Of a stretch of DNA of 53,086 bases, positions 15,005-51,371 are shown one piece after another. This stretch comes from a virus. Its lineage: Duplodnaviria > Caudoviricetes. The stretch's first letter is position 1. Each line of letters begins with the position of its first letter. The notes below the pieces were generated by a model that worked only from the letters and a program-made list of their open reading frames with translations, had not been told where the DNA came from and searched no databases. The stretch covers positions 1 to 53,086 of IMG/VR virus record IMGVR_UViG_3300025423_000028; one strand, 5' to 3'. A program made the position numbers and the translations under genes.

Positions 15005-15033
15005 ATCTTAGCATGTTGACTGAATGAAATCAA
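15005..15033 (-). promoter_or_regulatory. SigA-type promoter giving a probably leaderless helicase mRNA
   Basis: TTGATT-17 nt-TAAGAT with extended TG; ATG 6 nt after the -10; no SD. Confidence 0.65.
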
Positions 15034-18000
15034 TCGATATAGAAAGTATTGATGCCTGGAGCAATTCTATTTATATTAAAGATAGACGGATGAACTTCTT
15101 TATTCAACTGAAAGTATGGCTTGTTACTAATGCTTGTATGAGCAGGTGTCTCATTAGTAAAACTACTACCAAGGTAATCAATATCTAGATTCATATACAA
15201 TGGTGACTGTTTGTAATAAGGGACAACACTTACTCCAGAAATATAAATGTTTTGATCAAGAGCAGTCATACGCACCTGGATACCACTGGCATTAGAACCA
15301 GAAGCGATAGCAATGAATTGGCTTGGGTCATTAATACCAGTTGTTATTGGGTACCATCCACTTGCGCTGGTTATACTTGCTCCACTACTGGTGGTGTATT
15401 CATAACGGACTGGGTGGTAGAACGGTGCAAGCATTGCCACATAGAATGTTTCAGCGATGGCACTATTAATTTGTACCAACTGCATTGTAAAAGTTGAGTA
15501 GTTTGTGCCAGTAAAGCTTTCGAGCTCGATGTCAAACCATGTTTTGACCGGCAAAGTATTTGGTTGATATTGTTTGTAAGTCAACTCATAGCTATTGCCG
15601 TTAACATCTGTAGAAATAAGACTTGCCCTATATGTTCCGTTGTTACTATTTGGCAAGTATGTTCTAGCAACACCACTAACCCTCATGTTGTTACGGTCAA
15701 CAGAACTTGTCCAGATTGAAGTCGGTGAATTATAAGCGCCAAACTCATAAAGCTGATATGGTATGGTTCCACTAACAACCACTTGGATAGTATTGCTTGG
15801 TATTCCAGTAGAGTAATTTGTACCAGTTAGAACATATTGTGAATATTGTGACGTACCACTGATGGCAGTGCCACTAACCAGTGTTCCTGAGATTGCTGAG
15901 TTATTATTTGGATTAATAAATTGGGTGTAAAGACTAATGTTTCCCGAGGCTGTAGCCTCAGCATTAATTAAGAAATAATAGTTGACACCACTTGCAGGTG
16001 TATACTCAGCGTAACCTATCGTTCCTAGTGCCGACGTGCCGAGTGCAACAGTCCATGGTGTTGTACCGCTAACGCTATAGGCGCCTGGCAGAGTAAAATT
16101 ATATGCAGCAACATACGGCGCTCCGGTGACAACAATCCCACTAACTGAAGTATTATAGATTGGGGAAAGACTTATAGTTGTGCCGCTTATACCATACCAA
16201 GGAGACGACGAACCGCTAGGTATAATGAAGTTTGAATCATAATAACTAAGCAGATTTGATTGACTTTTATAGGCAGGTGATTTGATGCCATATGATGTAC
16301 CCGATGCATATACGGAATACACAGAGCTTGCACCAAGGCTGGTGACGTAATTAAGGCTTGCACCAGAAATCGACATTGTAGCTAGAGAACCACTGATGTT
16401 GTTCATCAAAGTTTGATCAAGATTTATTGGTTGACCTTGAGTTAGGAAACTACGCCAATCGCTTGTCAGACCAGCAATATTAAAACTATTGAATTTATCA
16501 ATAGTTGAGAACCATGGCGATACGGCAATATCGTCGGGGTTTAATTGGACGTAATTAGTACCCTGAGCATAAAATCCGCTATTGGTACCGTTCTTTGACA
16601 ATAAAGTATTAGGAGTCGACAAGAGTTCATCGTACGTATTCTCATAAAAAGCAGTTATGTATTTGATACCAACAAAGTATGATTCATGCCAGATTTGAGG
16701 AATTGTTAGCTGGTTGTAAACGTGGACACTGTTGTTATTAAACTTACGTTGCAAGAATTGTGTATACGATTGACCATTGTAAGACCCATTCTGGTCAAGC
16801 AACTTGTAACTAATACTAGGGTCCGTGATCTGTGACGCTGTGCTTACACCAACCGTAGTTTCATTATCAATTTGTGAGGAGTTAAGTGCAGCAAGGCTAG
16901 GCCAATTGTTATTGCCAGCTACCGTCTGTGTAGCTAATCCAAAGATTGTTGAAGGGCTAATCTGATTATTTACTTGGGTTTGTGTGGTCAGATTGGGGTT
17001 ATTAATCAATGAATAGTTTGTTGCACTACCATCAACGATGCCAAGCTCGAGCTCTGAGTAAAGTTCCTCAATGTAATATGGGAAAGTATTAATAGTTCTG
17101 TTGACAGTATCGAAAGGCAAATCGTATGCCTCAGGAACCAGCTGAGTAAATTCAAACTTTAGATAAGTGCAAGAAGTTTGTGGTAATTCGTAGATACCAT
17201 TACGGAGCACAAAGTCTTGTGGTACAGGGGACCAGTAAAATGTACCGGGATCTATTGTCCCGCCAGAAGTTGTTTGCGTTGTATAGTATACGTTAAATTT
17301 ACAACCACTATAAAGCGGATCAATGTACAAACGGTTTATAGTAGTTGGGCTAGGGTCACTCACCTTGGCATAAAAATAAACGATTGCATCACCTACGGGT
17401 TGTGGTGCACTCTTCCAATAGAGCGAACCAGACGCACTGGAAAACATATTCGCAGTTGGGTAGTTCACAAAAGAGAAGTTTTCAACAAGACCGAGGGCAT
17501 TCTGGCTAACAATTGTATTGGTCCCACTTATTACACTTGAAGGGACATCAGAAACTTGTTGGATATTAAACTTTACAGAGAACTGTTGAATGCCAACTGG
17601 GTAAGATACGTTTGTATAATTACCACTATTATCGTATTGCGATACAGCCTGCTGCCTCGTGATTCTTACAGCGATATTATTTGATGAAAGTGTGTACGGG
17701 GCTGTGTACTCTATCAAGAACCAATCATCAGTTGCATAGATATTTGGCCCACCATTAATAATAAAAGTAGATTGGCCTGGCAACGCAGTCCAAACGCCAT
17801 TGTTTTCAAAACCAAGTTCAACGTAGCAAGGAACATTGAGTACAAAAAAACTTGTAAAGTTAAAATAAGTATTTGAACTAAATGTGTAAGTATTAATTAC
17901 TGGTGCACTGCCAGGGCCACCGAAATTTGGCGTTGAGTACCATACAGTATCTGCTGTGGGGTCAAAGCTCAGAAGACCATTCGGGCTGTTTGTAATGCTT

Positions 18001-18179
18001 AAATTAGGATCAGAGTAACCATTTGTGCTTGTTGTACTTAGAGAATCAATAACACCTGTGTGTGCATAAATTTGGTTGTACACAAGACCGTTAGAAGTCA
18101 AAGGTGGGTTAACACCCTGTGTTACATAATCTTTTGATGGGTCTACGTTGTTTGGGATTATTGACATATTATTGTGCAC
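15030..18179 (-). CDS. Large baseplate/minor tail protein
   Basis: 1049 aa, beta-rich, follows the baseplate J and wedge genes. Confidence 0.65.
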   Translation of the reverse strand: MHNNMSIIPNNVDPSKDYVTQGVNPPLTSNGLVYNQIYAHTGVIDSLSTTSTNGYSDPNLSITNSPNGLLSFDPTADTVWYSTPNFGGPGSAPVINTYTFSSNTYFNFTSFFVLNVPCYVELGFENNGVWTALPGQSTFIINGGPNIYATDDWFLIEYTAPYTLSSNNIAVRITRQQAVSQYDNSGNYTNVSYPVGIQQFSVKFNIQQVSDVPSSVISGTNTIVSQNALGLVENFSFVNYPTANMFSSASGSLYWKSAPQPVGDAIVYFYAKVSDPSPTTINRLYIDPLYSGCKFNVYYTTQTTSGGTIDPGTFYWSPVPQDFVLRNGIYELPQTSCTYLKFEFTQLVPEAYDLPFDTVNRTINTFPYYIEELYSELELGIVDGSATNYSLINNPNLTTQTQVNNQISPSTIFGLATQTVAGNNNWPSLAALNSSQIDNETTVGVSTASQITDPSISYKLLDQNGSYNGQSYTQFLQRKFNNNSVHVYNQLTIPQIWHESYFVGIKYITAFYENTYDELLSTPNTLLSKNGTNSGFYAQGTNYVQLNPDDIAVSPWFSTIDKFNSFNIAGLTSDWRSFLTQGQPINLDQTLMNNISGSLATMSISGASLNYVTSLGASSVYSVYASGTSYGIKSPAYKSQSNLLSYYDSNFIIPSGSSSPWYGISGTTISLSPIYNTSVSGIVVTGAPYVAAYNFTLPGAYSVSGTTPWTVALGTSALGTIGYAEYTPASGVNYYFLINAEATASGNISLYTQFINPNNNSAISGTLVSGTAISGTSQYSQYVLTGTNYSTGIPSNTIQVVVSGTIPYQLYEFGAYNSPTSIWTSSVDRNNMRVSGVARTYLPNSNNGTYRASLISTDVNGNSYELTYKQYQPNTLPVKTWFDIELESFTGTNYSTFTMQLVQINSAIAETFYVAMLAPFYHPVRYEYTTSSGASITSASGWYPITTGINDPSQFIAIASGSNASGIQVRMTALDQNIYISGVSVVPYYKQSPLYMNLDIDYLGSSFTNETPAHTSISNKPYFQLNKEVHPSIFNINRIAPGINTFYID

Positions 18180-19116: not shown

Positions 19117-21617
19117 TAGAAGTTACTAGCTCCTGTGACTGTGTAAATGATGTTGTACAGGTTTGGTAGCTGATTGCTTGCCAGAATGAAATCTTTCTGA
19201 TATGAATTAATCAACGTACCATCCAAAGCAACGACGTTGATGTTTGTGATCTTAACGTTCGCTACGCCAGCTGAGGATAGGAATTGTGATGCTACATCTG
19301 CGAACGAAATCGTACCAAGGAATGAAAAGTTGTTAAAGTAATTATCGATCTGGTTAAAGATATTACTCTGCACCGTAGACAAGCTGTACCCATTAGAGAA
19401 GACAATCCTTGCATTCACAACAAGGTTAACAAAGTTCGCTTGGTGCACAAGAGTATTTGATCCGAATGGTCTACTTTGCTGCACAAGAGATTCAACCGTT
19501 GTTACATCGTTATTGTAAGAATGGTTGTATGTAGCCCAGCTTACAGAGCTTGGGAACGCAGGCCATCCATTTATCCCAGATGCCTGGACGTAAAGGCCAA
19601 GCCCTGTCATTGATTGAACACTGTTTTGTGTATTTGTGTTGTCAAATAATGGGTAGAACGCTACGCATCCAGTTAGAGTGATAGTTGTATTGATTGCGCT
19701 TGTAGTTGTAATAGCTTTATTCAAATAAACTCCACTAGAAGTTATGCTTTGAATATAGAATTGAGTTCCAGAAATTATAGAGTTGTTAGAACCAAGAATC
19801 ATACCTGGTATAAGGTTTGTCATGCTACCGCTGACTGGCAAGAAGTATCCACCAATTTGATTAGTTGTGACCGGCCCAGCGGTAAATGTTGCTGTTGGGA
19901 AAGGCGTTGCGTTTGTGCCCGGTTCAGGGTTGATAGCAATTGGGTATGTTGTGCCTGAGCTTATAGCTGTGTTATATAGATAAATCGTGTCAACGCTTGT
20001 AGGGTTTGCGGAGCTAATTTGAGATGGGAAATTTATTGCAGGCTGTACATTCAAAGGCAAGTAATAGTTACCAGACACCGAAGGGTTGGTTGCTGCTATT
20101 GAACCACTCGCAAGTGTATAGTTACGAGTATTTAAATAATTTATTGCGTTGCCAGAAGTCAATGTAAAGCTTGGGTTGAATACAATTTGTTCAGTGGCGG
20201 TATTTGGTGTCGTACCATTGATAAAAATATCAACATAGTTTCCGCTAGTTAACGTTGTAGAACGGCTCGATGCGGCATTGTATTCAGAAATAAGTTGTGG
20301 TGTGTTACCAATAAAAAGATTTGGGTTGTTAGTACTATTTGCAATGGTGATCGTCAACGGCGCTACAGGGTTTGTAGGGTAAAAGTAATCTGTTAGATTG
20401 GCGTATGTAGTTTGATTGTATGTATTTAAGTTAGTGCCAAGGAGCTCATTCCCTTGTGGGAAAAGGTAACCGCTGTTTACGCTGTTATACGACATGGTCC
20501 CCGACAAGCCAACATCAGGGTTGTTGGATACAATGTAATCATAAAAAGTGTAAACACTACCGCTGGCCAATGTGCCCGTAAATGTAGTTATACCACTAGT
20601 AGTAGAGGACCCTGATATAGTCAGTCTATATGGGGAAGCAAGGTTGGAAGAGATGTACATACCGCTTGCAATTGTGTTGGTGCCATTTGCTCCACTAACA
20701 GAGAATGAAAAACCACTGCTAGTTACAAGTGATGGGTATACCCCTGACATCATAGCGTTAAGGCCGGACGCAAGAGCCGATGCATTAGTGCTATATAGGA
20801 AACCACTGGATGCAACGTTGGTGCTTCCTGTATAGGTGACATTGTTAATAACACCGCTAGGAGCAACCAAATTAAACGTTACTGTTCCAGCATTTGATGT
20901 ACCACTAATTGTTGAAATAACCTGTGCTTGTTCACTGTAAAAGTTTTGTTGACCGATTGCATTCGCAAGGGTAACGTTAGGATCTTGCAACGCAGTAACA
21001 ACATATTTACCTTGTGTGCCTGCATTGTTACTAAATACAGTGCTCGTCCATCTATTTTGAAGAGCTGAGTCGCTCTCTGGGTCAAGACCACCAGAGATTG
21101 GATTGTAGTTATTCACAGCATTGACGCTGATGAGCGAAGTCATAAGGTTTGTTATGGTATTACTAGGGACGTTGCCAGTGGCACCGGGGAGGACTGCTAC
21201 AACAGGTACATCTACTGTGTAATCACCGATACCTATGATGGCCGGTGCAGTAGTTGAATAAATGATTGGCGTTGTGTAGTTCGTACCAATCGGTACAGAT
21301 ACCTGCGTACCGACTGGGATGTTAACTACAGTGGTCGATGCAGTGCTGATAGAAAAAGTGACGGTGCCTGAAGCACGCTTGCCTAGCTGACGATAGATAC
21401 CAAAAAGGTTGCAAAAGGCATCGAGCTCAGCGCCAGACTTTGTACTAATGTCATAGCTATATGTTTGTAGGACAGAGTTGTTATTAGCGTAAGCGATCTC
21501 TTGTGCTACAGCTTCTAAGATTTTAAATGTTGCTGTGCCAACGCTAACGTCCCAAGAGGGATCGTATACCGACAGCGCAGCTTGTAGCCGGGCAAGTACC
21601 CCAGTTGTATCAGCCAT
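19116..21617 (-). CDS. Baseplate J-like wedge protein with large insertion
   Basis: GAELDAFCNLFGIYR..ASGTVTF, IPVGT, GATGNV, GGLDPESDSALQNR. Confidence 0.85.
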   Translation of the reverse strand: MADTTGVLARLQAALSVYDPSWDVSVGTATFKILEAVAQEIAYANNNSVLQTYSYDISTKSGAELDAFCNLFGIYRQLGKRASGTVTFSISTASTTVVNIPVGTQVSVPIGTNYTTPIIYSTTAPAIIGIGDYTVDVPVVAVLPGATGNVPSNTITNLMTSLISVNAVNNYNPISGGLDPESDSALQNRWTSTVFSNNAGTQGKYVVTALQDPNVTLANAIGQQNFYSEQAQVISTISGTSNAGTVTFNLVAPSGVINNVTYTGSTNVASSGFLYSTNASALASGLNAMMSGVYPSLVTSSGFSFSVSGANGTNTIASGMYISSNLASPYRLTISGSSTTSGITTFTGTLASGSVYTFYDYIVSNNPDVGLSGTMSYNSVNSGYLFPQGNELLGTNLNTYNQTTYANLTDYFYPTNPVAPLTITIANSTNNPNLFIGNTPQLISEYNAASSRSTTLTSGNYVDIFINGTTPNTATEQIVFNPSFTLTSGNAINYLNTRNYTLASGSIAATNPSVSGNYYLPLNVQPAINFPSQISSANPTSVDTIYLYNTAISSGTTYPIAINPEPGTNATPFPTATFTAGPVTTNQIGGYFLPVSGSMTNLIPGMILGSNNSIISGTQFYIQSITSSGVYLNKAITTTSAINTTITLTGCVAFYPLFDNTNTQNSVQSMTGLGLYVQASGINGWPAFPSSVSWATYNHSYNNDVTTVESLVQQSRPFGSNTLVHQANFVNLVVNARIVFSNGYSLSTVQSNIFNQIDNYFNNFSFLGTISFADVASQFLSSAGVANVKITNINVVALDGTLINSYQKDFILASNQLPNLYNIIYTVTGASNF

Positions 21618-22062
21618 TGTTTACACTAACTCCATCATTGTCCAAATAGACGTTTAAGTTTAATTTCGTATTAGCTAAGGTTGTTAAATATATGTTAGCT
21701 ATTACAGAAGTATTTTGTATGCTTACCTGCACGGAATCAATGCTTTTTATAATCTCGCTTTTATTCCAATAAGATAGTTGAGCAGAATTTTGAGCATTTT
21801 GCAAGCTTAAGGCCTGTTGACCCTGGTATAGTTGAAGGACTCTAGATATTTCGCTTTGGATTGTGCTAGAGGTATTATACCCCTGGGCTTTACCAACGAT
21901 ATCGGTAAGCAAGCTACCAAAACCAGGCGTTGTGAACCCTGTACCCAGTGGCTCTTCTAGCCACAAAGTAAGGTCTTGTATTAGTTTATTGCTACCAACG
22001 GTGAATTGTAATTTACCGTTATTTAATTGGATATCACCATTGCTAACTGTAATCGTCTTCAT
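21610..22062 (-). CDS. Baseplate wedge/sheath initiator (T4 gp25-like)
   Basis: GDI..KLIQDL..L.EPLG..PGFGS.L motif, directly upstream of baseplate J. Confidence 0.75.
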   Translation of the reverse strand: MKTITVSNGDIQLNNGKLQFTVGSNKLIQDLTLWLEEPLGTGFTTPGFGSLLTDIVGKAQGYNTSSTIQSEISRVLQLYQGQQALSLQNAQNSAQLSYWNKSEIIKSIDSVQVSIQNTSVIANIYLTTLANTKLNLNVYLDNDGVSVNNG

Positions 22063-28772: not shown

Positions 28773-28774
28773 AA

Positions 28775-35267: not shown

Positions 35268-35936
35268 TTATAATTCTTGGATGTTCATTGTCCCAGAAGT
35301 CGTTAAAACATTGACAACTGGCACTCCCGAAGCGGTAATATTCGTGATTGCAGGTACTGTGTACTGGTATTTGCTCTCGTAGAAATCACCAACACATTGG
35401 ATCCTTATACTTGCTTCATATGTTAATTCTTCTGGGCTCCATGGCGTTCCTGCACTGATGGAGTCCCCAAGCGGGGTAAACGTATCCAAAAGGAACGTTA
35501 TGCCTACTAGGGTATTATTTAAAATACTTGCATTGAATGCAGTGCTAGCAGGGCTGCCCTGACCCATAAGGATAAGGTTGGCAACGCTGTCATATAGTCG
35601 ATCTCGTTCTTCGGAGTGCATGGCCATAATTTGGAGATCAACGCTACCCTCAAAGTAATTGGTTCTATTACTATTGAACCCTGAGTAGGTTGTCCCGCTG
35701 ATGGTTGTACCTGATGACGAGACCGTATAAATATCAGGGTTTAAACCCGACCATTGCACCTTGCTTGGCCTGAATTGGACAAGAATACAAGGCCACTCAA
35801 CAGCTTCAAGGGGGTATTCGATAACGATGCTATTAGGAGTTAAATCTAAGCTGTTGTTGCTTGGGCTGGATGCTAACGCGGAAAACCCAGCGTTTAGTGC
35901 TTCTATGATTGTAGTTTTAACGGCAGTAGTAAACAT
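35268..35936 (-). CDS. Tail terminator/neck protein
   Basis: EYP..WP.I, SEERDRLYD; directly upstream of the sheath gene. Confidence 0.65.
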   Translation of the reverse strand: MFTTAVKTTIIEALNAGFSALASSPSNNSLDLTPNSIVIEYPLEAVEWPCILVQFRPSKVQWSGLNPDIYTVSSSGTTISGTTYSGFNSNRTNYFEGSVDLQIMAMHSEERDRLYDSVANLILMGQGSPASTAFNASILNNTLVGITFLLDTFTPLGDSISAGTPWSPEELTYEASIRIQCVGDFYESKYQYTVPAITNITASGVPVVNVLTTSGTMNIQEL

Positions 35937-37538: not shown

Positions 37539-37551
37539 ATCATACTCAAAA

Positions 37552-40616: not shown

Positions 40617-40930
40617 TAGAACCCCATTGCTAAAAACATGTTGCCATTCGAAGCTGGGCTAATAGCGTATCCATAAACTGCTGGGACTAAATAGGCAGAG
40701 CTGGATTGTGGAGAAACATATGTTTGATTAGTTAGTGTTGAAGGTGCTAAATAATAGTCAAGATATGAAACTCTAGAAGTACCAGAACGTGCACCAAATG
40801 TGGCGTTGTAGTTGGCGTTTGATGCGCCCTCCACCGTGCCTGGTGAGGTCTTGTGACCCAGTTTGCCGAGAAACCAACCGACGAAGCCTGCGCCGAAATA
40901 GGGGCGCGTGTAATTCTTGCGCGAGGTCAT
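40616..40930 (-). CDS. Chimeric/remnant fibre-associated protein
   Basis: GC-rich N-terminal part joined to a C-terminal part paralogous to 22099..22776 (both end PASNGNMFLAMGF). Confidence 0.6.
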   Translation of the reverse strand: MTSRKNYTRPYFGAGFVGWFLGKLGHKTSPGTVEGASNANYNATFGARSGTSRVSYLDYYLAPSTLTNQTYVSPQSSSAYLVPAVYGYAISPASNGNMFLAMGF

Positions 40931-43900
40931 GACAGACCGACCCAGATGGGCGAGCCGCTAACTGCTGGGGTTCCCGAGATGGTCGTGGGGAGCGAGGTAA
41001 AGCCGGTCAACGTACTGCAACGCTGGTTGAGGGTGTTCGCCGCGACCGTGTTGGGGCCGACGTTGATGGCTGCCGCCGTGGTCTGGTTGTAGGCGAACAG
41101 GTGGCTTGCCGCCGTCGACGTAATTATGCCGAGCCAGTAGACACCCGAGTTGGTCGGGGTGTAGGCGGTGCCGAAACTGCCGGAAGCCTGCGTGTTGCTC
41201 GGTGGCGTCGTGGCGATGTTACCCGTGACAGCCAACTGCGTCGTGGCATTGTAGAGGCCGACCGTGACGTAACTGCTACCGACACCCGTGGCGATGATGA
41301 CATAGACGTTGGAGTAGGTCACGCCCGCTTGGAGGTAGACCGCCATGAAGTAGACCGTGCTGGTCGCCAGCGTTAGACCACCCGTAGCCACCGTGTTTGT
41401 TGCTGCGTCATACGTCCATGCAGTTAGACCGTTGAGCGACGGTGGGGTCATGGCGACTGGGGTGGCGTAGGAGAGCGATGAGCCGTTTGAGGTCAACACC
41501 GTGCCGTTAGAGCCGACGGAGGTGAGGTTCGTGCCACCGTTAGCAACTGCGAGCGTTCCGGTTACGTTGCTGGTAAGCGACAGCGTTCCAATGAGGTTTG
41601 ACAAGTTGTTGCTGTTTGTCATGTACCAATTGCCGCCGTTGTAGTTCACAAAACTCAACGTGCCATAGGCGGACAAGGTGTAGGTGGTAACGCTTGAGCC
41701 CGAACCGAGTGGGTACATAGAGTTAGCAAAACTCAACGTAACTGGGTTGGCGCTGTTGTTAATGAGTGTCCAGGAGGAACCGTCAATGGGGTTGCTGGGT
41801 GTCGAAAGCGTTTGACCTGCGGCTCCGGTGAATACCGTTATCTCGTTGCGTCCGACCGTTGCCGTTGCCGAGCGCAGGACAAGGTGGTTCGAGATAGTGG
41901 TAGACCAGCCAGCCGTTGAGCCGGTGTAAACCCACACGGTTGCGGTCTGGTCAACAACAAAGTCACCAACCGTCCACGTTCCTGAAGCTGGTGCGCCGTT
42001 AACCGTGCCACCGACGAAGCGAGCGCCAGCCGTTGCACCCGTGAGACCAGTAGACGAGGAATATTGACCAGTAATACCACTTGTGACTGCAACGGTACCA
42101 CTAAACGTAGCATTGCCAATCTGTGTAGCTGTGCCGGTTACAGTGATGTTACCGCCTACGTTTAAGTTGCCTGCATCCATTTCACTACCAACGGTGATGG
42201 CACCTGTCACGGTCAATGATCCAGATATTGTTCCACCAGATGTCGGAACAAAGTTTCCTGTCCATGCTGCTGTGGCTCCATTAGATACGAGAGCAGTACC
42301 GCTTGTACCAATTGCTAAGTTAGTGTAGACAGATCCATTACCAATAAGCATTGAACCACTTGTAGCAGTAAGCTGAGAGCCCGTACCACCGTTATTGACA
42401 GAAAGCTTACCGGCAGAAGTGTTTGACATGTTGTTGGAGAACAACATGTTCCAGAAAGTACCGTTATATACAAAGAAAGACATTTCAACACCAGCATTCT
42501 GCGTTGAATATGTTGTGGTTCCGCTTGTCGAGTTAAATGGAGCAATGGTAGTTCCATTGCCGTTCAATGTAATTGGACCACTAGCTGGGTGAGCATAAAT
42601 ACCATAGGTAGAACCAGATGGTGGGTTTGATGGCAAATAGAATGTTAAACCACTGCCTGTAGTCCAGGTGAACTCATCAACTGTGCATGGTGATCCTGAT
42701 GTTGTGCTCGTAGTACGCACAACGAAGTTATAACCATTAACTAGTACACCAGAAGGTACTGTTGATCCATTGAAGGTGATTGCACCGCTAGCAGTTAAAC
42801 CACTAAGGACTGTCAGAGCACCAGAGATTGTGCCACCAGAACGTTGTAAAGCATCGTAAGCTACACCACTAACGGTGTTAAGATTGCCTGAAATTAGAGC
42901 GATAGAGCTCGTGTGTCCAGTAACAATACCAGATGTTGTGTTGTATGCACCGCTCAAAGTAACGAACTGACCTGAAAGCGTAGCAAGATTAGCAACAGTC
43001 CCTGTTACCGTTGAGTTGGCATTGATGATGGCATTAACAACACCGCTAACTGCTGTGGTGCCAACTAAGGTTGCAGCTACAGCTCCTGTCCCAGTTGCAG
43101 TAACGTCACCAGTAAGTGAAGTGATTCCTCCACCGCTTCCTCCACCGCTAACCGTTGCTGGCACCCATTGTGTGCTATTCCATACGATAGCTTGCCCGCT
43201 GGTAGCAGTTACACCACCAATGATGGGGCTGGTGATGTTCAATGCACCACTGATCGTACCGCCTGATCTTTGCAGAGCTCCATATGCCACGCCGCTAACA
43301 GTATTGAGGCTACCCGACGTAGAAGCGTATGAACCGCTTAGCGCTACAAACTGACCAGAAAGAGTTGCCAAACTACCTGACAAGCTGACAATATTTGCTT
43401 CATCTACAATTTGTTTGTTAGCAACGTATTCCAGCTGAATTGAAATGTTATTGATGTTTGTCTCATCAACAATTTGATTATTCGATATGGTTGTAATTTG
43501 GCTACCCTGGCCACTTACGGTGCCACTAAGGGCTATGTAGTTGTTAGTTAGCATAGACGCTGATGTGTTGAATTGAAGATCATCTACAGCTGTTCTAACA
43601 GGGAATACATTGAATCCCGATGAAGTGCCGATAGCGTGAGCGTAAGGAGTCGTTCCATCCCAGCCACGTCCATTGTATGTGCCATCAGTCCATACAGGGA
43701 TTACTGCGTTTGCACCAATAGTGATAGCACCTGAAGCACAAAGGATCTTCTCTTCCGTGCCCAAGCCGTAGTCAACTACAAGGGTGAAAACACCACTAGT
43801 TCCAAGGGGGTTAGTAGTGGCAGTGCCGCTCGAGCTTACTTCGTACCAACCTGCTGTATTTGCCAAGGTCAATGCTTGACCGCTTGTGTACCCACTGATA

Positions 43901-43974
43901 AGCGTTGCAGAAAGGTACGTGGGTGTAGCAGCACCTGCGAGAGATCTAGGAGTTGTGTAGTCTGGGTAAGCCAT
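40927..43974 (-). CDS. Tail fibre/receptor-binding protein
   Basis: 1015 aa; coiled-coil heptads, GTLAVANGGT repeats, GC-rich C-terminal tip. Confidence 0.75.
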   Translation of the reverse strand: MAYPDYTTPRSLAGAATPTYLSATLISGYTSGQALTLANTAGWYEVSSSGTATTNPLGTSGVFTLVVDYGLGTEEKILCASGAITIGANAVIPVWTDGTYNGRGWDGTTPYAHAIGTSSGFNVFPVRTAVDDLQFNTSASMLTNNYIALSGTVSGQGSQITTISNNQIVDETNINNISIQLEYVANKQIVDEANIVSLSGSLATLSGQFVALSGSYASTSGSLNTVSGVAYGALQRSGGTISGALNITSPIIGGVTATSGQAIVWNSTQWVPATVSGGGSGGGITSLTGDVTATGTGAVAATLVGTTAVSGVVNAIINANSTVTGTVANLATLSGQFVTLSGAYNTTSGIVTGHTSSIALISGNLNTVSGVAYDALQRSGGTISGALTVLSGLTASGAITFNGSTVPSGVLVNGYNFVVRTTSTTSGSPCTVDEFTWTTGSGLTFYLPSNPPSGSTYGIYAHPASGPITLNGNGTTIAPFNSTSGTTTYSTQNAGVEMSFFVYNGTFWNMLFSNNMSNTSAGKLSVNNGGTGSQLTATSGSMLIGNGSVYTNLAIGTSGTALVSNGATAAWTGNFVPTSGGTISGSLTVTGAITVGSEMDAGNLNVGGNITVTGTATQIGNATFSGTVAVTSGITGQYSSSTGLTGATAGARFVGGTVNGAPASGTWTVGDFVVDQTATVWVYTGSTAGWSTTISNHLVLRSATATVGRNEITVFTGAAGQTLSTPSNPIDGSSWTLINNSANPVTLSFANSMYPLGSGSSVTTYTLSAYGTLSFVNYNGGNWYMTNSNNLSNLIGTLSLTSNVTGTLAVANGGTNLTSVGSNGTVLTSNGSSLSYATPVAMTPPSLNGLTAWTYDAATNTVATGGLTLATSTVYFMAVYLQAGVTYSNVYVIIATGVGSSYVTVGLYNATTQLAVTGNIATTPPSNTQASGSFGTAYTPTNSGVYWLGIITSTAASHLFAYNQTTAAAINVGPNTVAANTLNQRCSTLTGFTSLPTTISGTPAVSGSPIWVGLS
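42833..42883. repeat. 51-bp direct repeat, copy 1 (copy 2 at 49687..49737)
   Basis: ccaccagaacgttgtaaagcaYcgtaagctacaccactaacggtgttaaga, 50/51 identical. Confidence 0.9.
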
Positions 43975-43984
43975 CAGTTATTTC

Positions 43985-44521
43985 CTAAGAAAATTGGACA
44001 ATTACTTTAAACAGAACGCTATCTTCAGGAAACAAATGGATACCAGCAAAAGTACTTTTGATATACATGTTGCTATTTGGCAACACTACTGGAGTAAGCG
44101 AAGGAATAATACTTGTCACCTTACTAGAGCCATTTGTAGCCCTAATTACATTGAAGCTATTGGTCCCATTACCAGAAATTACAGTCATTACTTCTGAAGT
44201 GACTTGGATATTGAACGGGAACGTAGCTGGAAAAAGGTTGTAACCGCTGACAGTAATTGTGGTATCTGTGGGGTTAACTTGATTTGACAATGAACTAACG
44301 GTTGAACTAGAATTACTATCAAAAAGGCCGACCTCGGTAATTGAGTAGAGATTGTTCGCAGTCAACAAACCAGTAGATATAAAAGTATCTCCAGAAGTAG
44401 AGGTAGTAAAAGCGCTGGTCGTACCAGAAATAACTGTTCCTACGGGGTTAAAAAGAGATATGTCTGTTGCTGAAGCGGTACCACTACCCGTTCCCCAACC
44501 AATATAAAAATTATTTGCCAT
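43985..44521 (-). CDS. Minor virion protein
   Basis: YIGWGTG..ITEVGLFD pattern seen in fibre-anchoring proteins. Confidence 0.6.
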   Translation of the reverse strand: MANNFYIGWGTGSGTASATDISLFNPVGTVISGTTSAFTTSTSGDTFISTGLLTANNLYSITEVGLFDSNSSSTVSSLSNQVNPTDTTITVSGYNLFPATFPFNIQVTSEVMTVISGNGTNSFNVIRATNGSSKVTSIIPSLTPVVLPNSNMYIKSTFAGIHLFPEDSVLFKVIVQFS

Positions 44522-44526
44522 ATTAT

Positions 44527-47500
44527 CTAGCCCAATCTTTGCGTGTAATACATCGGGAAATTGCTTGTAAGTACGTTATTGTTGGTACCTTTGAGTGTTG
44601 AATTCAAAGCGTATATTGGATTACCACTGGCAGTAACACCATTCAAGACAACGTAATTCATAGTTGCAACGGATGCTACTGATAATGTTCCACCATTTAT
44701 GATCAATGCACCGTCACGGTTAGAGATTGTGTTCCATACAGAACCATATTTTGATGATTCATTGAATGAATAAGTGCCAAATGGAACAGTTGTAAAATTC
44801 AAATCGAGCACAGGACCAACGTATGTTCCTGATGGTGGTTGGGTTGTTGTACCAGAAGTGCTTGAAGTTGAAGGCCACCATGCAGTAATTATTGATGCTA
44901 ATGCATAAAAATCCTGGTCAGGGCCTGGAAAATCACCAACTGTTGCAGTCGGGACACCACTACCTATTACCGAGAACGTAGTACCACTAACGACAGCATT
45001 GCTAACAACATAAGATCCGTTATATGGATTGCTAGCTGGGTTAACACCGCCACTAAACCCAGTCACGTTAACATTTGCACCAATGTGGAAATCGTTAGTG
45101 TTTGCAAGCGGACTTACAAGTTGGTAAATATAAGTATATGCTCCAGAAGTAATCGTGTAAGTTGCTCCTGAAACAGACACAGAGCTACCAATATAGTAAG
45201 GTGATGGATTATACCCGCTAATTCCGTTGTATACTTGTGCTCTCAGGAACTGACCAAAGTTGGTTGATCCAGCAATAATAGCTGGTTTTTGCCCCATTGT
45301 AATCGACCCAGTTGCTGATGTCACTGAAACCGAATATGGCCACGTTATTGGTAAATCACCAGTGCCTGGATCTGGAGAATAGTTAAAAGTAACGACTCCA
45401 GTGCTTTGCGATCTTGTTACATTAACCCAACTAGCATTTGTTGGGATGCTATTAAGTGATAGAGTGCCACTTACAGTATTGATGATCCCAGTTGAATCTT
45501 TATAAGAAAAGTATAAACCTAAGTTATTCCCTGTGGCTGGATTAAGTCCGAATGTCCAGCCATCTGCCCCAGTGCTATCTTTGATAATTGCTGTAGCAGT
45601 AGTTGGCTGCCATGAAACTGGATTTATAAACGTACGAACATCTACGTCGCCATTTGTTTGATACTGAGAAGCATTGCCAGAAACATTCGTGATAGTGTTA
45701 TCAAATATGTTACCATATGTTCTAAAGCTGTTTGCATTTAGATAGTTTATGGTTTGCTTTGTACCTTGGAAACCTACGGTTGTCATTGGGTAAAAAAGCA
45801 ATGAATTAAATGAATTGTTACCGTTAAAATTAACTGTCCAACCAAATCCATTTGTTTGTTGCAATGGCGAAGGGCTAGGTGAGGTTGCTGTCTTTGGACC
45901 AATAAAATTAGTAAATGAATTGTTCCCACTAATTGTAAAAGTTGTATATGCAGTGTATGACGCACCGCTAGGCATAGTCAGTGAATAATATTGTTGGTTA
46001 CCGCCATAAAAAGTTGAGGTACTTAAGTTAGTTAATTGAATTGATCCATAGTTACTTGTTAGTGCACCTGATGAAGTATTTTTAAACGTCCAAGTACCTG
46101 AAACAGCCCACGCTTGGGGGTTAGATGAAGTGCCACCCATAATAACTTTACCGCTAGGTCCAACGGTAAAGTTTTGCAAAACAACTGAGTTAATATTGGG
46201 ATTATTAGCAGATAGTGTTCCACTATTAACTGTTAAAGCTAATGCGGTAGAGAAATTGTCTTGCAACATTACAGTTGATCCGGGGTATAGATCAATATAA
46301 GTAGCACGCGGCCATTTATATCCATTTGAGGTAATTGTATTGACATTGCTACCAAGCAAAATCCAGTTAGGACTGCCCGTAGTTTTTGACCCCAATGAAA
46401 TACTACTAAAGATAAAATAGTTGGGGTTAAAAAAGTTTAAAGTCCCTGTAAAAGTTGTTGCATTAAACCCAGGGATTAATGGTGGATCTACTTTGATTGT
46501 TGCGTTCGATTTAGCTGAATTTTTGTCAAAAACAGCAATATCTTGTGGCAATGGATTGCGAACTACCCCACCGTTTCCGCTAGTAGATGTATACCATTTG
46601 GCGTCAGACCAGTTTCCTGAAGTTACTGCTGCGTTGTAAAAATACCCTGATATAGAAGGACTAAAAGTAATACCACTATTACCGCCGCCATCTCCCCAAC
46701 CGGTTGCATCTGGTGAAGACCAGTTAGCAACTCCTGATACTTTAATATTTTGAAAAATAACATATTTGATTGCAAGACTACTTGCTGTAATTGTTGATGG
46801 TGTGTATGACCAACTAGGTGTATACACAATAGATTGATCACTGGCGATATAAGTTGGTACGTGTCCAACCCCATTAGTAAATTGATTGATGCCAGATACG
46901 GTGAAAAGCCCATTGATTACGAGGTTTGATCCACTAGAGATAATTAAATTATTGCCTGATGTAGTGGTTGACAGTGTTGGAGAGAATGTCAGGTTGGAAA
47001 GAGGGAATGTAGAACCTGTACCAGTAGCATCATAGAAATACAAAGGGCCTTGACCACTATACGTAATCGGAGGCAATGTAGTTGATGTGCCGTTATAACT
47101 AACCACAGAACCATAAGGGAGCGTATTGCTAAGAACGATTGATGCGCCTGCTGAGTATTGACTTGTAACACTTCCATTAATTGCAATAGTTGGAGTTAAG
47201 TCTCCAGATGATGTTGGACCGCTATTGATAACAATATTGGAAGACCCAAAATTAATAGTAGATAAGTTATTTGCAGTTAACGTTGATAATGTACAGCTAT
47301 TGTTGTTAGTTGTAAAATTACCATTGGTATCTAAATAAAGATTACCTATATAAGAGCCACTCAACGATAAAGAAGAGTTATTATATATGCTAATACTACC
47401 ATTGCCAAGGTTAATGTTTCCGGAAGTTGTCACTGGTGCCGAAAGCCCATAAAAGGTAACAGAGTCGCCATTCACTGGGAATACAGATGCAATACCACCT

Positions 47501-48519
47501 GATGAGTATCCGCTACTAGGAACTGAAGTGGGAAATATTTGAAAACCACCGCTAGTGGTTCCTACTATCTGTTGGTTTTGGTTGTAATCATTTGGAGTCG
47601 TTCCAGTGATTACAACGGTTTGGCCAACTACAAAATTATTAGATCCTAGATATGTTACAGTTGGGGAAATTGAAGGGTTACCACCTGACACATAAAGGTC
47701 AGTTACATAGTTGTTATATGCAACATAAAAACTTGATGCTGTACAAGAAGTAATTGGCAGAGCCGTAATGTTAAAAGCTGTCCCAGATCCAGCATTTCCT
47801 GTAGCACCAGTTACAGTAACCAATTGACCTGGGATGAAGTTGTTGTTACATATATATAGTGCACCACCATTAGAATCAGCAAACCCACCAGAACCAGAAA
47901 TGCCAGCAAAAGCTGACGATGTAGACTGCACACTAAAAGAGGAAGCAGTAACTGAAGTTACCACCCAGTTATCACTAAATATAGTCGGAGATGTTTCAAA
48001 TACGCTTATTGGCTCTCCGACCACAAATGGATTGGCATACCCACCGGCTGTATTAAAAGTAATTGTATATGGACTGCTACTACCGCTTACAGTGATGTTA
48101 TTAATGTTTACAGTGCTTTGCCCATAAGCAAAACCACCAGAACTATAACTATCACCAGAAACTGTTGCGTTTGTAGTAAAAGAAGATGTTGTTACACGCG
48201 TTATGGTTGCAAAGACGTTAAACAACCCACTTGTTGAGACAATGTTTTTTGTTCTTACAAGTTGTCCAACTACAAAAGGATTGGTTCCACTAACAAAATA
48301 AGTAGGGGTTGAATTGGATAAATTTGCGCCACTGATCGTAGCGGAGACACCAATGTTATAAGAAATAGCATTGGTAATTGGACCACCCGTATACGTAACC
48401 GGGTTGTTATAGTATGCACCAGTAATGGTTACGTCAGGATAACCCCAGTTAACCTGTGGTTGATTCCAGTACCAAGTGTTAGGGTACCCACTAACAATTT
48501 GAAAAGCGTAGTCAGCCAT
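44527..48519 (-). CDS. Large virion surface/adhesin-like protein; probable start MADY at 48519
   Basis: Five FxxGxxVx(I/V)-type beta repeats, a beta-helix-like middle and a LamG-like region; TAATG coupling at 48519. Confidence 0.65.
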   Translation of the reverse strand: MADYAFQIVSGYPNTWYWNQPQVNWGYPDVTITGAYYNNPVTYTGGPITNAISYNIGVSATISGANLSNSTPTYFVSGTNPFVVGQLVRTKNIVSTSGLFNVFATITRVTTSSFTTNATVSGDSYSSGGFAYGQSTVNINNITVSGSSSPYTITFNTAGGYANPFVVGEPISVFETSPTIFSDNWVVTSVTASSFSVQSTSSAFAGISGSGGFADSNGGALYICNNNFIPGQLVTVTGATGNAGSGTAFNITALPITSCTASSFYVAYNNYVTDLYVSGGNPSISPTVTYLGSNNFVVGQTVVITGTTPNDYNQNQQIVGTTSGGFQIFPTSVPSSGYSSGGIASVFPVNGDSVTFYGLSAPVTTSGNINLGNGSISIYNNSSLSLSGSYIGNLYLDTNGNFTTNNNSCTLSTLTANNLSTINFGSSNIVINSGPTSSGDLTPTIAINGSVTSQYSAGASIVLSNTLPYGSVVSYNGTSTTLPPITYSGQGPLYFYDATGTGSTFPLSNLTFSPTLSTTTSGNNLIISSGSNLVINGLFTVSGINQFTNGVGHVPTYIASDQSIVYTPSWSYTPSTITASSLAIKYVIFQNIKVSGVANWSSPDATGWGDGGGNSGITFSPSISGYFYNAAVTSGNWSDAKWYTSTSGNGGVVRNPLPQDIAVFDKNSAKSNATIKVDPPLIPGFNATTFTGTLNFFNPNYFIFSSISLGSKTTGSPNWILLGSNVNTITSNGYKWPRATYIDLYPGSTVMLQDNFSTALALTVNSGTLSANNPNINSVVLQNFTVGPSGKVIMGGTSSNPQAWAVSGTWTFKNTSSGALTSNYGSIQLTNLSTSTFYGGNQQYYSLTMPSGASYTAYTTFTISGNNSFTNFIGPKTATSPSPSPLQQTNGFGWTVNFNGNNSFNSLLFYPMTTVGFQGTKQTINYLNANSFRTYGNIFDNTITNVSGNASQYQTNGDVDVRTFINPVSWQPTTATAIIKDSTGADGWTFGLNPATGNNLGLYFSYKDSTGIINTVSGTLSLNSIPTNASWVNVTRSQSTGVVTFNYSPDPGTGDLPITWPYSVSVTSATGSITMGQKPAIIAGSTNFGQFLRAQVYNGISGYNPSPYYIGSSVSVSGATYTITSGAYTYIYQLVSPLANTNDFHIGANVNVTGFSGGVNPASNPYNGSYVVSNAVVSGTTFSVIGSGVPTATVGDFPGPDQDFYALASIITAWWPSTSSTSGTTTQPPSGTYVGPVLDLNFTTVPFGTYSFNESSKYGSVWNTISNRDGALIINGGTLSVASVATMNYVVLNGVTASGNPIYALNSTLKGTNNNVLTSNFPMYYTQRLG

Positions 48520-50117
48520 TATACGATTCCAACAATGCGCCAAGCTCCACTAGGGTTAATCGTTAGATCCCAAACAAATGCGTAATCTACACGACCTGAA
48601 GAGGGTGGAACTGTAGGCAGTGCAATGCTAGAAGGCTCAAAACTTCCCGCTGTCCAAGCAGAACCAGGAATGTTAAATGGCCCTGCAATATTGGTGAAGG
48701 CAATGCGTATTGTTTTTTCACCTGATACTGTATTGCTTGCAAATGCCATGGATGTAACTGAAACGCCTTGTCCGCTAACTAATACTACATCATAATTAGC
48801 AGGGTTTACAGAAGATAAAGGTGTTGCTGAGCCCGGGACTGTAATTACACGGGGATTACCATCGATAATACCGGTGACAATTCTTCTTACGTTTGCTGTG
48901 TCGTTTAGGATTGGAGCTGGGTAAGTTCCAATCAAGTCACCAGCGGCAGAAATGCCACTGATAGTGGTAAGAACGTTATTTCCGCTTACAGTCAAACCAC
49001 TTGCTACAGCAAGGTTGCCAGTGATAGAACCACCGGCTGATGGCAACGCTGCATAAGCTACACCACTAACTGTATTCAAGTTGCCTGATGTAACTGCGTA
49101 TGATCCACTCAAGGCTACAAACTGGCTGGTTAGCGTGGTTACATTGCCGCTAGTTACAACATACTGGCCACTAAGAGTTGTCAAGCTCCCTGAAGTAGAT
49201 ACGTACTGGCCACTAAGTGTAGCCAAATTAGAATTGGTAGTCGTTATATTCCCACTAATATTAGTAAGATCAGTTACAAGACCAGTAACTTGGTTTTTGG
49301 TAATCTGAATACCAGTTGCTGTTACCGCACCGCTAACGGTCAAACCGCTGACAACTGTTAAGTTGCCTGATATTGTTCCACCTGAGATTGGCAAGAAATT
49401 GCCTGATGTCCCACCAGAAATTGTAATTGGTGTCCACGCAGTGTTATTCCATACCAAGCTTTGACCGCTAGCTGGAGTAGAAGACGAAATGGGGTAGCCT
49501 TGTAGAGTAGTGGCATTGGTACCACTGGCTCCACCACCACTAATTGAGATTGGCAACCATTGCGTGCCATTGTAAACTATTGACTGGCCAGAAGTTGCTG
49601 CTATGCCACCAACATAAGGACTGGTGAAATATACACCACCTTGGAACGTTGAAGAACCAGTAACCGTTAAGTTACCAGTGATAGTTCCACCAGAACGTTG
49701 TAAAGCACCGTAAGCTACACCACTAACGGTGTTAAGACTACCGCTTAGAGAAGCAATGTTGCCTGTTGCGGTAGTTACAATCCCGCTAGTAGTGTTATAC
49801 TGACCAGATAACGTAACAAATTGACCGCTTAGGGTTGTTAATGATCCACTAAGGTTGGCAATATTATTGGCGTTCGTATTCAGTGCGCCTGAAATATTTG
49901 TTAAGTCAGAAGTAAGATTTGTAACTTGGCTTTCAGTGATTTGGATACCAGTTGCAGTAACTGTTCCACTAACAGTTAAACCTGAAACAACTACTAAGTT
50001 GCCACTAATCGTGCCGCCAGTAAGAGGAAGATAGTTGCCTGATGCTGTACTAAAATTACCCAAAAATGCTTGAACCAGGTTACTTCTGGTAGCACTAGTC
50101 AATACCGTGTTCATCAT
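48519..50117 (-). CDS. Fibre protein with SG heptad coiled coils
   Basis: Repeats shared with the 22777 and 40927 fibres; ends WRIVGIV. Confidence 0.7.
   Translation of the reverse strand: MMNTVLTSATRSNLVQAFLGNFSTASGNYLPLTGGTISGNLVVVSGLTVSGTVTATGIQITESQVTNLTSDLTNISGALNTNANNIANLSGSLTTLSGQFVTLSGQYNTTSGIVTTATGNIASLSGSLNTVSGVAYGALQRSGGTITGNLTVTGSSTFQGGVYFTSPYVGGIAATSGQSIVYNGTQWLPISISGGGASGTNATTLQGYPISSSTPASGQSLVWNNTAWTPITISGGTSGNFLPISGGTISGNLTVVSGLTVSGAVTATGIQITKNQVTGLVTDLTNISGNITTTNSNLATLSGQYVSTSGSLTTLSGQYVVTSGNVTTLTSQFVALSGSYAVTSGNLNTVSGVAYAALPSAGGSITGNLAVASGLTVSGNNVLTTISGISAAGDLIGTYPAPILNDTANVRRIVTGIIDGNPRVITVPGSATPLSSVNPANYDVVLVSGQGVSVTSMAFASNTVSGEKTIRIAFTNIAGPFNIPGSAWTAGSFEPSSIALPTVPPSSGRVDYAFVWDLTINPSGAWRIVGIV
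49687..49737. repeat. 51-bp direct repeat, copy 2
   Basis: Matches 42833..42883 with one mismatch. Confidence 0.9.
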
Positions 50118-50219: not shown

Positions 50220-50921
50220 TTAGGATTGCTGACGGTACGTTCTCTTCTGACCAGTCTGGTACAAGTTACCGCTGTAGGTAGCAAAGTAACCAGCGTAGCT
50301 TTGGTTCTCAGAAACATTCGTTTGGATCTGACGAACCTGAGTTTGAACAACGTTTGCACCTGAGATAGTACCGTTGTTGTTAACAACGAGCTGACCAGCG
50401 AAACCAACCTGGTAAGCGTGGACTGTTGCGTCGTCGATCCAGGTAGGAACAGCGTTGGGGGTACCAACGTAGCTTGGGTAAGACTGACCCTCAGTACCAG
50501 AAGGCACGAAGGCGGTCAACGTTGGAACAGCACCAGTACCACTGATAACTGTGAGCACAGCACCGCTAGGCACAACAATAGTTGTTGTCGTGTCGTACAG
50601 GTAGTTAGCACCACCACCGTTCACGTAGAACGTTGTGTTAGAAAGAGGACCGGCTGCAAGAGCAGAGATCAAGTTGTTGATGTTGCTACCAGTAGAGGTA
50701 CCAGTCAAAGTCGTTGTGACCTGACCATTGCTACCACTGATTGTGAACGTAGTAACACCAGTACCGACTGAGAGCTCGAGGATACCGCTAGCCGTGTAGG
50801 CAGCGTTAACCATAATTGCTGGGTCAATAGCCTCAAAGTATGCGTTAGCACCACCGCGTGTTACACCACGGAGTGCGGCCTTTGTAGACTGCTCGTTTGG
50901 GACGTTTGGAGTAGTCGCCAT
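50220..50921 (-). CDS. Virion structural/decoration protein
   Basis: 233 aa, strong codon bias, in the head region. Confidence 0.6.
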   Translation of the reverse strand: MATTPNVPNEQSTKAALRGVTRGGANAYFEAIDPAIMVNAAYTASGILELSVGTGVTTFTISGSNGQVTTTLTGTSTGSNINNLISALAAGPLSNTTFYVNGGGANYLYDTTTTIVVPSGAVLTVISGTGAVPTLTAFVPSGTEGQSYPSYVGTPNAVPTWIDDATVHAYQVGFAGQLVVNNNGTISGANVVQTQVRQIQTNVSENQSYAGYFATYSGNLYQTGQKRTYRQQS

Positions 50922-51100
50922 TATATATCACCTATTCTGTTGAGTGTTTGTCCGGTTTGAAAAGTGCTGGCATGTGTTGCAACAGCTGCGTATGTTGTTG
51001 CAGCTTTTACATCAGGCAAGGCAACACCTTGTGAAATAACCGTATTTGGTTTTGGTTGGGTAGAAACGACAGCGTTCTTAGAAAGCTTCGTTGTCGACAT
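50921..51100 (-). CDS. Small hypothetical protein, 59 aa (not in ORF track)
   Basis: MSTTKLSKNAVVSTQPKPNTVISQGVALPD..RIGDI; starts just after the 51102 stop and ends in a TAATG overlap. Confidence 0.65.
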   Translation of the reverse strand: MSTTKLSKNAVVSTQPKPNTVISQGVALPDVKAATTYAAVATHASTFQTGQTLNRIGDI

Positions 51101-51101
51101 C

Positions 51102-51371
51102 CTAGAAACCTCGTACAGTTGTGTTGTATTGATCGTTCTGAAAAACCAAACCAGTATTAACTTGGCCAGACCAACCCGAACCGCTTAAAGTAGGTGCAGC
51201 GTAACCACCGCTGACAGTACCGGCGAACGTCTGTGGTACCCAAACGTTGAACCATGGCTCATTGTAGATTGTTGTACCACTCAAAACCGTACCACTGGGG
51301 ATAATTGCGCCCAATGGTTCGGCAGCAGCCTCAACATCAGGCTTCACTGTGTTCTTGATCTCGTCGCTCAT
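51102..51371 (-). CDS. Small virion protein, SG-rich
   Basis: 89 aa, AAGGAG SD; 6 of 7 serines are followed by Gly. Confidence 0.6.
   Translation of the reverse strand: MSDEIKNTVKPDVEAAAEPLGAIIPSGTVLSGTTIYNEPWFNVWVPQTFAGTVSGGYAAPTLSGSGWSGQVNTGLVFQNDQYNTTVRGF

Follow-up and report, generated by a model that had tools for sequence, protein, structure and literature searches.

Why should one dipeptide, serine followed by glycine (SG), recur so persistently in the tail proteins of a virus? The question is raised by the IMG/VR virus record IMGVR_UViG_3300025423_000028 (Duplodnaviria; Caudoviricetes), whose whole sequence of 53,086 bases, estimated to be 35% complete and with all its genes on the minus strand, is referred to here as the window and carries a contractile-tail module from position 15030 upward. 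An earlier note on this DNA had taken the dipeptide as the sequon of a dense modification of exposed virion surfaces, probably by the phage glycosyltransferases. The analysis revealed a real, strong and order-specific SG signal that is restricted to the outer tail proteins and to the lineage that keeps a glycosyltransferase of family GT4; SG, and more widely T-[V/I/A]-S-G-[T], is a selected motif at the loops where beta-strands end in outward-facing tail proteins. As judged from sequence, the SG serines may carry a modification, probably a sugar, with GT4 as the candidate enzyme, and the reading tentatively preferred here is that SG serves as a sequon for O-glycosylation of the outer tail proteins by GT4.

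Expected dipeptide counts were calculated from each protein's own composition and pooled over the 31 proteins encoded at 15030-51371 (11,859 amino acids, aa). SG is found 299 times against 125.6 expected (observed/expected ratio, O/E, 2.38; z 17.7). In a comparison of all 400 dipeptides none departs further from expectation, its z there being 15.5, and the maximum reached in 500 within-protein shuffles did not exceed 154. The runner-up, Gly-Thr (z 5.1), owes its surplus entirely to SGT, which takes up 59 of the 198 pairs and leaves 139 against 138.4 expected. Comparison with the reversed pair and with Thr-Gly, proposed in the earlier note as a check, gave 116 GS (125.6 expected) and 121 TG (138.4 expected, O/E 0.87); NG (103 against 95.6), DG (30 against 33.7) and PG (50 against 54.0) are also near expectation. 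Since GS, GG, SS, NG and DG are not enriched, a clustering of Ser and Gly in loops is not the cause, and the strict order of S before G points to a directional reader. In the 22 proteins encoded outside 15030-51371, SG occurs 17 times for 17.2 expected.

Hexamers coding for SG number 299 in frame 0 and 18–49 in each of the other five frames, and the Ser of SG is encoded by all six Ser codons. Because the excess is frame-specific and uses every Ser codon, selection at the protein level is supported, as had been proposed from the mixed codons. The AGY codons are overused in the Ser of SG (54% vs 39% in other Ser, p 4e-6), in keeping with pairs that arose recently through single changes in Asn-, Gly- or Thr-Gly. 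The surroundings of the dipeptide are also biased, with T at position -2 in 100 of 298 sites, V, I or A at -1 in 138 of 298 and T favoured at +2. Asp is depleted at -3, -1, +2, +3 and +4, and among the 298 sites it is seen at -1 in none, at -3 in one and at +3 in one.

The proteins were divided into outer and inner according to their expected place in a contractile tail, with synteny and family matches as the guide. In the outer set (tail, baseplate and fibre; n = 21) there are 280 SG against 106.0 expected, and the ten inner or non-virion proteins (tube, the protein in the tape-measure position, hub, gp25-like protein, chaperones and others) hold 19 against 19.5. Ser and Gly are not scarce in the inner proteins, the tape-measure-position protein having 8.8% S and 10.6% G. 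The individual counts in Table 1 agree with those given in the earlier note for the 532-aa fibre (about 37), baseplate J (more than 20, mostly in its insertion) and the 89-aa protein (six of its seven Ser), and with the absence of SG from the tube and the gp25-like protein; DnaB and SNF2 contain 2 and 3, as had been counted. The excess thus falls on proteins expected to face outward, as the claim of exposed surfaces implies, and not on the tube, tape-measure-position protein, hub or gp25-like protein. A loop SSGTTISGTTYSG is indeed present in the 222-aa protein to which it had been ascribed, the name of tail terminator given to that protein being one by position only. Much of the SG of the 532-aa fibre lies within internal repeats (LSGQY.., ISGGTISGNLTV..). 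When the three repeat-sharing fibre proteins are left out, 168 SG still stand against 69.7 expected (z 13.3), and the non-repetitive 1338-aa protein, for which no Pfam or PHROG family match was found, is itself rich in the dipeptide. Near-identical modules (NYLPISGGTISGNLTV.., LSGQFVALSGSY..) are common to the fibre-like proteins at 48519-50117, 22777-24612 and 40927-43974, which suggests that the fibre genes exchanged or duplicated modules.

A closer view is given by the sheath, which matches phrog_2839 (E 5.6e-31) and whose model has the sheaths of phage 812, pyocin R2 and AFP among its Foldseek matches. All 12 of its SG lie within residues 53–286, in outer domains added to the conserved C-terminal core; the earlier note had placed them in the first ~290 residues, with no GS. 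In the AlphaFold model (pLDDT 80.7) they are predicted to occupy hairpin turns, loops before strands and helix ends. The same preference extends over 114 sheath homologues (28–99% identity), with 1257 SG and 442 GS for 544.5 expected, and in an alignment of 108 sheaths 1157 SG fall in the outer N-terminal part and 58 in the core. Some of the SG columns are nearly fixed (S115 in 92 of 107) and many are intermediate, from which it appears that sites turn over while the count per protein stays at about 11–13. The sheath is also almost devoid of charge, with 3.7% of charged residues as compared with 7.3% in the outer tail set and 27% in non-virion proteins.

The related set comprised 46 IMG/VR loci. 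An O/E over all open reading frames (ORFs) within 10 kb of the sheath was noisy, with inner proteins and differing fibre content mixed, and was replaced by orthologue-based measures. A GT4 homologue, 52–84% identical to that of the window and better conserved than the sheath, is carried by 30 of the 46 contigs; 14 of the remaining 16 are fragments from GT4-bearing lineages, and the other two are sister phages, namely G046, a complete genome with terminal repeats in which no GT4-family match of any kind was obtained, and G044 (61% complete), in which no GT4 was found. The SG/GS/expected counts of virion orthologues are 72/72/57.8 in G046 and 86/99/84.0 in G044, and among the GT4-bearing genomes 124/72/63.9 in G037, ~225/86/92.2 in G019 and ~210/92/93.3 in G029. 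Measured on five to seven non-fibre tail orthologues, O/E is 1.62–2.51 in all 44 loci of GT4-bearing lineages and 1.20 and 1.22 in the two sister-clade loci. The GT4-bearing locus L045, with a sheath 36% identical to that of the window and hence as distant as the sister loci, gave 2.13. The orthologues of the 222-aa protein in G046 and G044 have no SG.

Outside this set, two more distant relatives without a GT4 match (90% and 87% complete; GC 0.46 and 0.50) gave O/E values of 1.11 and 1.37, and the all-ORF values of the tail modules of mycobacteriophage Myrna, Gordonia phage Skog, Rhodococcus phage E3 and Eggerthella phage LE2-3 are 1.10, 1.07, 1.27 and 1.27. All ORFs of nine unrelated phage records yielded 0.91–1.67. 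A mild SG excess of 1.1–1.3 seems to be the general background, which the 2.4 of the window exceeds. At the level of single ORFs of at least 150 aa, a Poisson p < 0.001 for SG was reached by 6 of 38 in the window, by 2–3 in each of three clade genomes and by none of 197 in six records without a GT4 of the window type. Sequence comparison therefore confirmed that the SG excess runs through the clade, and that eight relatives without a GT4 match lack it.

The two sister phages are instructive because their sheaths match that of the window (3.7% charged, S 10.3%, G 8.1%) in composition. The G046 sheath has 3.5% charged residues, S 13.2%, T 15.0% and G 7.5%, with 7 SG and 6 GS, and the G044 sheath 4.3%, S 12.1%, T 16.6% and G 8.0%, with 7 SG and 8 GS. 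Composition is thereby ruled out as the cause. The near-absence of charge is shared by these sister sheaths (L051:9014-11182, L049:9233-11188; 3.5–4.3%), and charged residues are more frequent in Myrna, Skog, E3 and LE2-3 (15–21%); an uncharged, Ser/Thr-rich surface thus predates the SG rule and is independent of it. AT pressure turning PG or GG into SG was rejected as the sole cause, since the low-GC sister phages show no excess. G046 encodes a GT2 (PF00535, over the cut-off) at ~34520-34924 on the minus strand, between its capsid and sheath genes, and may have a different modification of its own.

The aligned positions of 95 SG sites from nine window proteins were also compared, with alignment error in divergent loops as a caveat to these counts and to the retention values. 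In relatives without GT4, the 185 aligned cells hold SG in 14, another residue followed by Gly in 32 (any Gly in 46, or 25%), and Ser followed by a residue other than Gly in 36, a further 43 being gaps. The corresponding figure for SG in GT4-bearing relatives is 106 of 285 cells. Over eleven proteins, GT4-bearing relatives retain SG at 0.43, as against 0.325 for all dipeptides and 0.11–0.21 for other Ser pairs, the Ser of SG at 0.51 (other Ser 0.39) and the Gly of SG at 0.65 (other Gly 0.72). Across the boundary to the relatives without GT4, retention of SG is 0.10 vs 0.168 overall, and that of its Gly 0.32 vs 0.53 for other Gly. From these contrasts, most SG glycines were added in the GT4-bearing clade, where SG is conserved as a unit; by alignment they are clade-specific and not ancient turn glycines. 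Three ways in which the earlier note saw its reading failing are therefore not borne out: composition does not account for sister sheaths equal in S, T, G and charge with SG about as frequent as GS; a general beta-turn preference does not fit NG, DG and PG at expectation and Gly in 46 of 185 cells; and no excess was observed where no GT4 was found.

The candidate writer is encoded at 10035-11306. Its Pfam match to PF00534 scores 40.2 bits (cut-off 26.4), with further matches to PF13692 and PF20706, and the E-x7-E motif of the C-terminal Rossmann domain, typical of the family, is present as E302 and E310, both conserved without exception among 16 homologues of 50–100% identity. The AF2 model (pLDDT 86.4) has a GT-B fold of two Rossmann domains, with GT4 enzymes as the top Foldseek matches (TM 0.63–0.73), so that both sequence and predicted structure identify the protein as a bona fide GT4. 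The best solved match is the putative glycosyltransferase B736L of chlorovirus NY-2A (PDB 3oy2; E 6.7e-5, TM 0.73, identity 17%). A GT2-like protein, with a Pfam score below the cut-off, adjoins it. This gene was not found in G019, G024, G027 or G029/G030, all of which retain the SG excess, and G019 has the highest excess in virion orthologues among the relatives fully compared; the GT2-like protein is probably not required for the excess, and the plural glycosyltransferases of the earlier note are reduced to one. As a second writer it was rejected, not being found in G019. A scan of both proteins with NCBIfam returned no BAHT model.

According to the mechanism proposed, SG would mark serines in the outer domains of the sheath, the baseplate J insertion, the distal tail proteins and the fibres; the clade's own cytoplasmic GT4 would O-glycosylate them before or during tail assembly; and a dense sugar cover on tail and fibres would be the outcome. 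The window itself contains no capsid gene within its 53,086 bases. In relatives, the major capsid protein (four members: G027, G029, G037 and G046) is normally charged, 66–67% identical to Myrna gp99 and not enriched in SG, so that any coat would lie on tail, baseplate and fibres and not on the capsid shell, as judged from this protein; the term virion-wide used in the earlier note was an overstatement. The capsid genes L187-L191 (G019, G029, G027, G046, G037) are very uneven with the sheath in their conservation, the capsid being 66–67% and the sheath ~27% identical to the Myrna counterpart. The fuller picture, in which a clade of abundant uncultured actinobacterial myoviruses has tail, baseplate and fibres sugar-coated and the capsid shell bare, at hundreds of loop serines in a T-hydrophobic-Ser-Gly sequon and through one conserved phage GT4 acting in the cytoplasm, is possible, though less likely than not.

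Several observations weigh against glycosylation by GT4. The major capsid protein has 2 SG in three GT4-bearing genomes, the same number as in GT4-less G046. In a quick sheath tree, the GT4-less sisters form one clade within an unresolved three-way split with two GT4-bearing clades, and the outgroups lack both GT4 and the SG excess; the co-occurrence of GT4 and SG therefore amounts to a single evolutionary event. The phyletic pattern of GT4 is, moreover, common to 17 other genes, since of the 162 G029 ORFs 18 have counterparts in both G019 and G037 but none in the complete G046. The small-molecule transferases MshA, BshA and GlgM score nearly as high as the viral match in the Foldseek search of the GT4 model, in which no protein O-transferase ranks high. 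GT4 homologues of 32–50% identity in unrelated phages bring no tail-wide SG excess, as in the cultured Tetrasphaera phage TJE1 (GT4 38% identical), with an SG O/E of 1.10. Among nine unrelated carriers, five are without an excess, and in two it is confined to a single large SG-rich protein, which in G049 is a giant repeat protein and in G050 one other protein. A Fisher test on records (8 of 14 vs 0 of 6, p 0.024; 0.084 with lineages collapsed) includes Thr-Gly cases and ignores relatedness, and was not relied on. Taken together, the single event, the 17 co-distributed genes, the structural neighbours and the unrelated carriers make the link to GT4 weaker than it appears. Of the earlier claim of a sequon-directed modification, what stands is that the motif survives the computational comparisons that could have undone it. 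The unrelated 95-kb genome G047 (GT4 50% identical) encodes proteins of 1968 and 611 aa (40212-46118 and 53224-55059) with collagen-like G-x-T repeats; its TG count of 266 against 97 expected is repeat-derived and unrelated to the SG motif.

The remaining adverse observations concern the role of the glycine and lead to a close rival, a serious if uncertain possibility, in which SG is a structural habit of the lineage: as a Ser-capped Gly or a type II-like turn, it would close beta-strands in the loops of the fibre repeats and of the outer beta-rich domains. The habit would have spread via duplication of domains and repeats and selection for folding or assembly, and GT4 would act elsewhere, on DNA, the cell wall or a small molecule, as its small-molecule fold neighbours allow. 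At frequent sheath columns that lack SG, Gly is kept 361 times and Ser 108, and the commonest replacements are TG (199) and NG (66), followed by SS (40) and AG (37); that Gly outlasts Ser favours a turn-like role for it. The positions of SG in the sheath model and the SG-bearing modules shared by three fibre proteins agree with such a role, the T-hydrophobic-S-G context also occurs in tandem beta domains of unrelated phages, and high-GC relatives prefer other X-Gly turn pairs (PG, GG, DG); the top pairs of the Myrna, Skog, E3 and LE2-3 tail modules are PG, GG, NP or DG (z 4–5.5). Against it stand the sister phages, which do without an SG excess although their folds are homologous and their composition is the same; the presence of Gly at only a quarter of the aligned positions in them; the finding that, from one side of the clade boundary to the other, SG glycines are conserved less than any others; the lack of enrichment of GS, GG, SS, NG and DG; and an effect (O/E 2.4, z over 15) far above the turn-pair biases of the controls.

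That SG is read by another agent is unlikely. Such an agent would place a phosphate, an acyl group or another modification on Ser, or would be a writer or binder from the host or from an unannotated clade-specific gene. The choice of Ser and not Thr, and of S before G, suggests an enzyme-like reader, and candidates exist among the 17 further genes with the phyletic pattern of GT4: Pfam scans of 16 of them assigned no family to 14, the other two being an AAA_5 ATPase and a weakly NlpC/P60-like protein. Among the 18, in contrast, a transferase domain can be recognised in GT4 alone; neither the scanned clade-specific genes nor the window yielded a kinase, an acyltransferase or a similar domain, and no precedent was found. 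The repetitive fibres and the abundance of both Ser and Gly might suggest that the excess is an artefact, whether of chance, repeats, mutation bias or composition; this is very improbable given that the shuffles never came near the observed count, that the excess is frame-specific and persists without the fibres, and that equally Ser/Gly-rich inner proteins and sister sheaths do not show it.

The positions of the features are collected in Table 1. The tail module is syntenic with genes 97-138 of Myrna, with a sheath only ~27% identical, and a megablast search of 20 kb of the window against annotated phages gave no match. A replication block encodes DnaB, its loader, a 5'-3' exonuclease and an SNF2 helicase, and the early region a DenV-like pyrimidine-dimer DNA glycosylase (56-484), a phage Hfq-like protein (2997-3383) and a LuxC-like acyl-CoA reductase domain (3699-4763). 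The gene whiB is described as a marker for actinobacterial phages (PMC6802176). An Rpf-type transglycosylase domain and a pair of WhiB-like genes, the second of which lies amid the tail genes, point to an actinobacterial host despite a GC content of 43%; the clade consists of uncultured myoviruses, probably of such hosts.

Table 1. Features of the window and their Ser-Gly content (expected counts in brackets)
Feature	Position	Strand	Remarks
Five tRNA genes (Arg-tct, Trp-cca, Thr-tgt, Pro-tgg, Lys-ttt)	8181-9508	-	directly downstream of GT4
GT4 glycosyltransferase, 423 aa	10035..11306	-	candidate writer; 52-84% identical across the clade
GT2-like protein, 229 aa	11309..11998	-	adjoins GT4; Pfam below cut-off
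Two WhiB-like genes	11968-12366, 37179-37583		second one mid tail module
Rpf-type transglycosylase domain	12720-13073		
Minor tail protein, 1049 aa	15030..18179	-	25 SG (9.2)
Baseplate J-like wedge protein, 833 aa	19116..21617	-	25 SG (7.9), mostly in residues 238-680
gp25-like baseplate protein	21610..22062	-	0 SG (1.3); Ser 10.7%
Fibre-like protein, 611 aa	22777..24612	-	29 SG (9.7); NYLPISGGTISGNLTV modules
Hub-like virion protein, 929 aa	24609..27398	-	6 SG (7.1); inner control
Protein in tape-measure position, 800 aa	28775..31177	-	9 SG (7.4); inner control; synteny with Myrna gp128, no family match
Protein following the tube, 327 aa	32170..33153	-	10 SG (4.8)
Tail tube, 158 aa	33178..33654	-	0 SG; Ser 2.5%; inner control
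Tail sheath, 516 aa	33664..35214	-	12 SG (4.3), 0 GS
222-aa protein, phrog_2748	35268..35936	-	6 SG (1.7); adjoins sheath upstream
Fibre-like protein, 1015 aa	40927..43974	-	46 SG (16.9); repeat modules in common with the 532-aa and 611-aa proteins
Non-repetitive virion protein, 1338 aa	44527..48543	-	44 SG (20.3)
Fibre protein, 532 aa	48519..50117	-	37 SG (9.7), 9 GS; weak PHROG tail-needle match
233-aa protein	50220..50921	-	7 SG (2.2)
89-aa protein	51102..51371	-	6 of 7 Ser in SG (0.9)

A search of the literature, outside supplementary files, turned up no description of a Ser-Gly sequon or of excess SG in the virions of phages. New here are the composition-matched sister clade without GT4, the contrast in site retention and a screen of the genes specific to the clade. 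If SG is purely structural, a striking lineage-wide and order-specific dipeptide rule over unrelated folds, absent from sisters of the same composition, would need explaining. If it is a sequon for GT4, the consequences would extend to adsorption, the stability of the particles, the evasion of recognition by host or grazer, and phage surface engineering. Because the motif is short and can be counted, the idea lends itself to a direct test by mass spectrometry.

As regards known systems, the eukaryotic proteoglycan xylosylation sequon is Ser-Gly flanked by acidic residues. The phage motif shares with it the core dipeptide and a Ser-only acceptor, but its context is T-hydrophobic-S-G-T with acidic residues depleted, and no GT14-type enzyme was seen, so that the likeness drawn in the earlier note is superficial. 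Chlorovirus NY-2A provides, in B736L, a virus-encoded GT4 that is the best match of the window enzyme in sequence and fold, at an identity of only 17% and with MshA and BshA matching almost as well.

Two prokaryotic systems come nearer. The cytoplasmic GT-B heptosyltransferases TibC and AAH are described as hyperglycosylating many Ser, and not Thr, of TibA and AIDA-I, the mapped sites including Ser-313 in N-S-G-G and Ser-322 in S-A (PMC4358343). The likeness would lie in a cytoplasmic, Ser-specific hyperglycosylation of beta-rich surface proteins, of which the window shows a sequence bias (O/E 2.38 for SG and 0.87 for TG); the enzymes described there form dodecameric rings, contain an iron finger and belong to a different family, and their substrates are autotransporters, not virions. 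Glycosylation of phage virions is known from a few mycobacteriophages. In Che8, Corndog and Myrna, virion proteins are O-glycosylated by phage-encoded glycosyltransferases (Freeman et al. 2023, as cited in PMC12363180 and PMC12619734), and the glycans are reported to sit on the C-terminal ends of the capsid and tail-tube subunits (same study, cited in PMC12619734). As cited, these too are actinobacterial phages in which transferases of their own decorate virion proteins made in the cytoplasm, and Myrna is a distant relative of the clade (27% identity in the sheath, 66–67% in the capsid). In contrast, SG is absent from the window tube and not enriched in the capsid of relatives, and the putative sites, numbering in the hundreds, are serines of internal loops on sheath, baseplate and fibres; the Myrna tail module has no SG excess (O/E 1.10), and tblastn of the window GT4 against Myrna gave no match. 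The sequon reading therefore belongs neither to the TibC/AAH type, from which it differs in enzyme family, nor to the mycobacteriophage type, from which it differs in target sites, and a dense sequon-directed glycan cover on a contractile tail, if true, would be of a different scale and logic from mycobacteriophage virion glycosylation.

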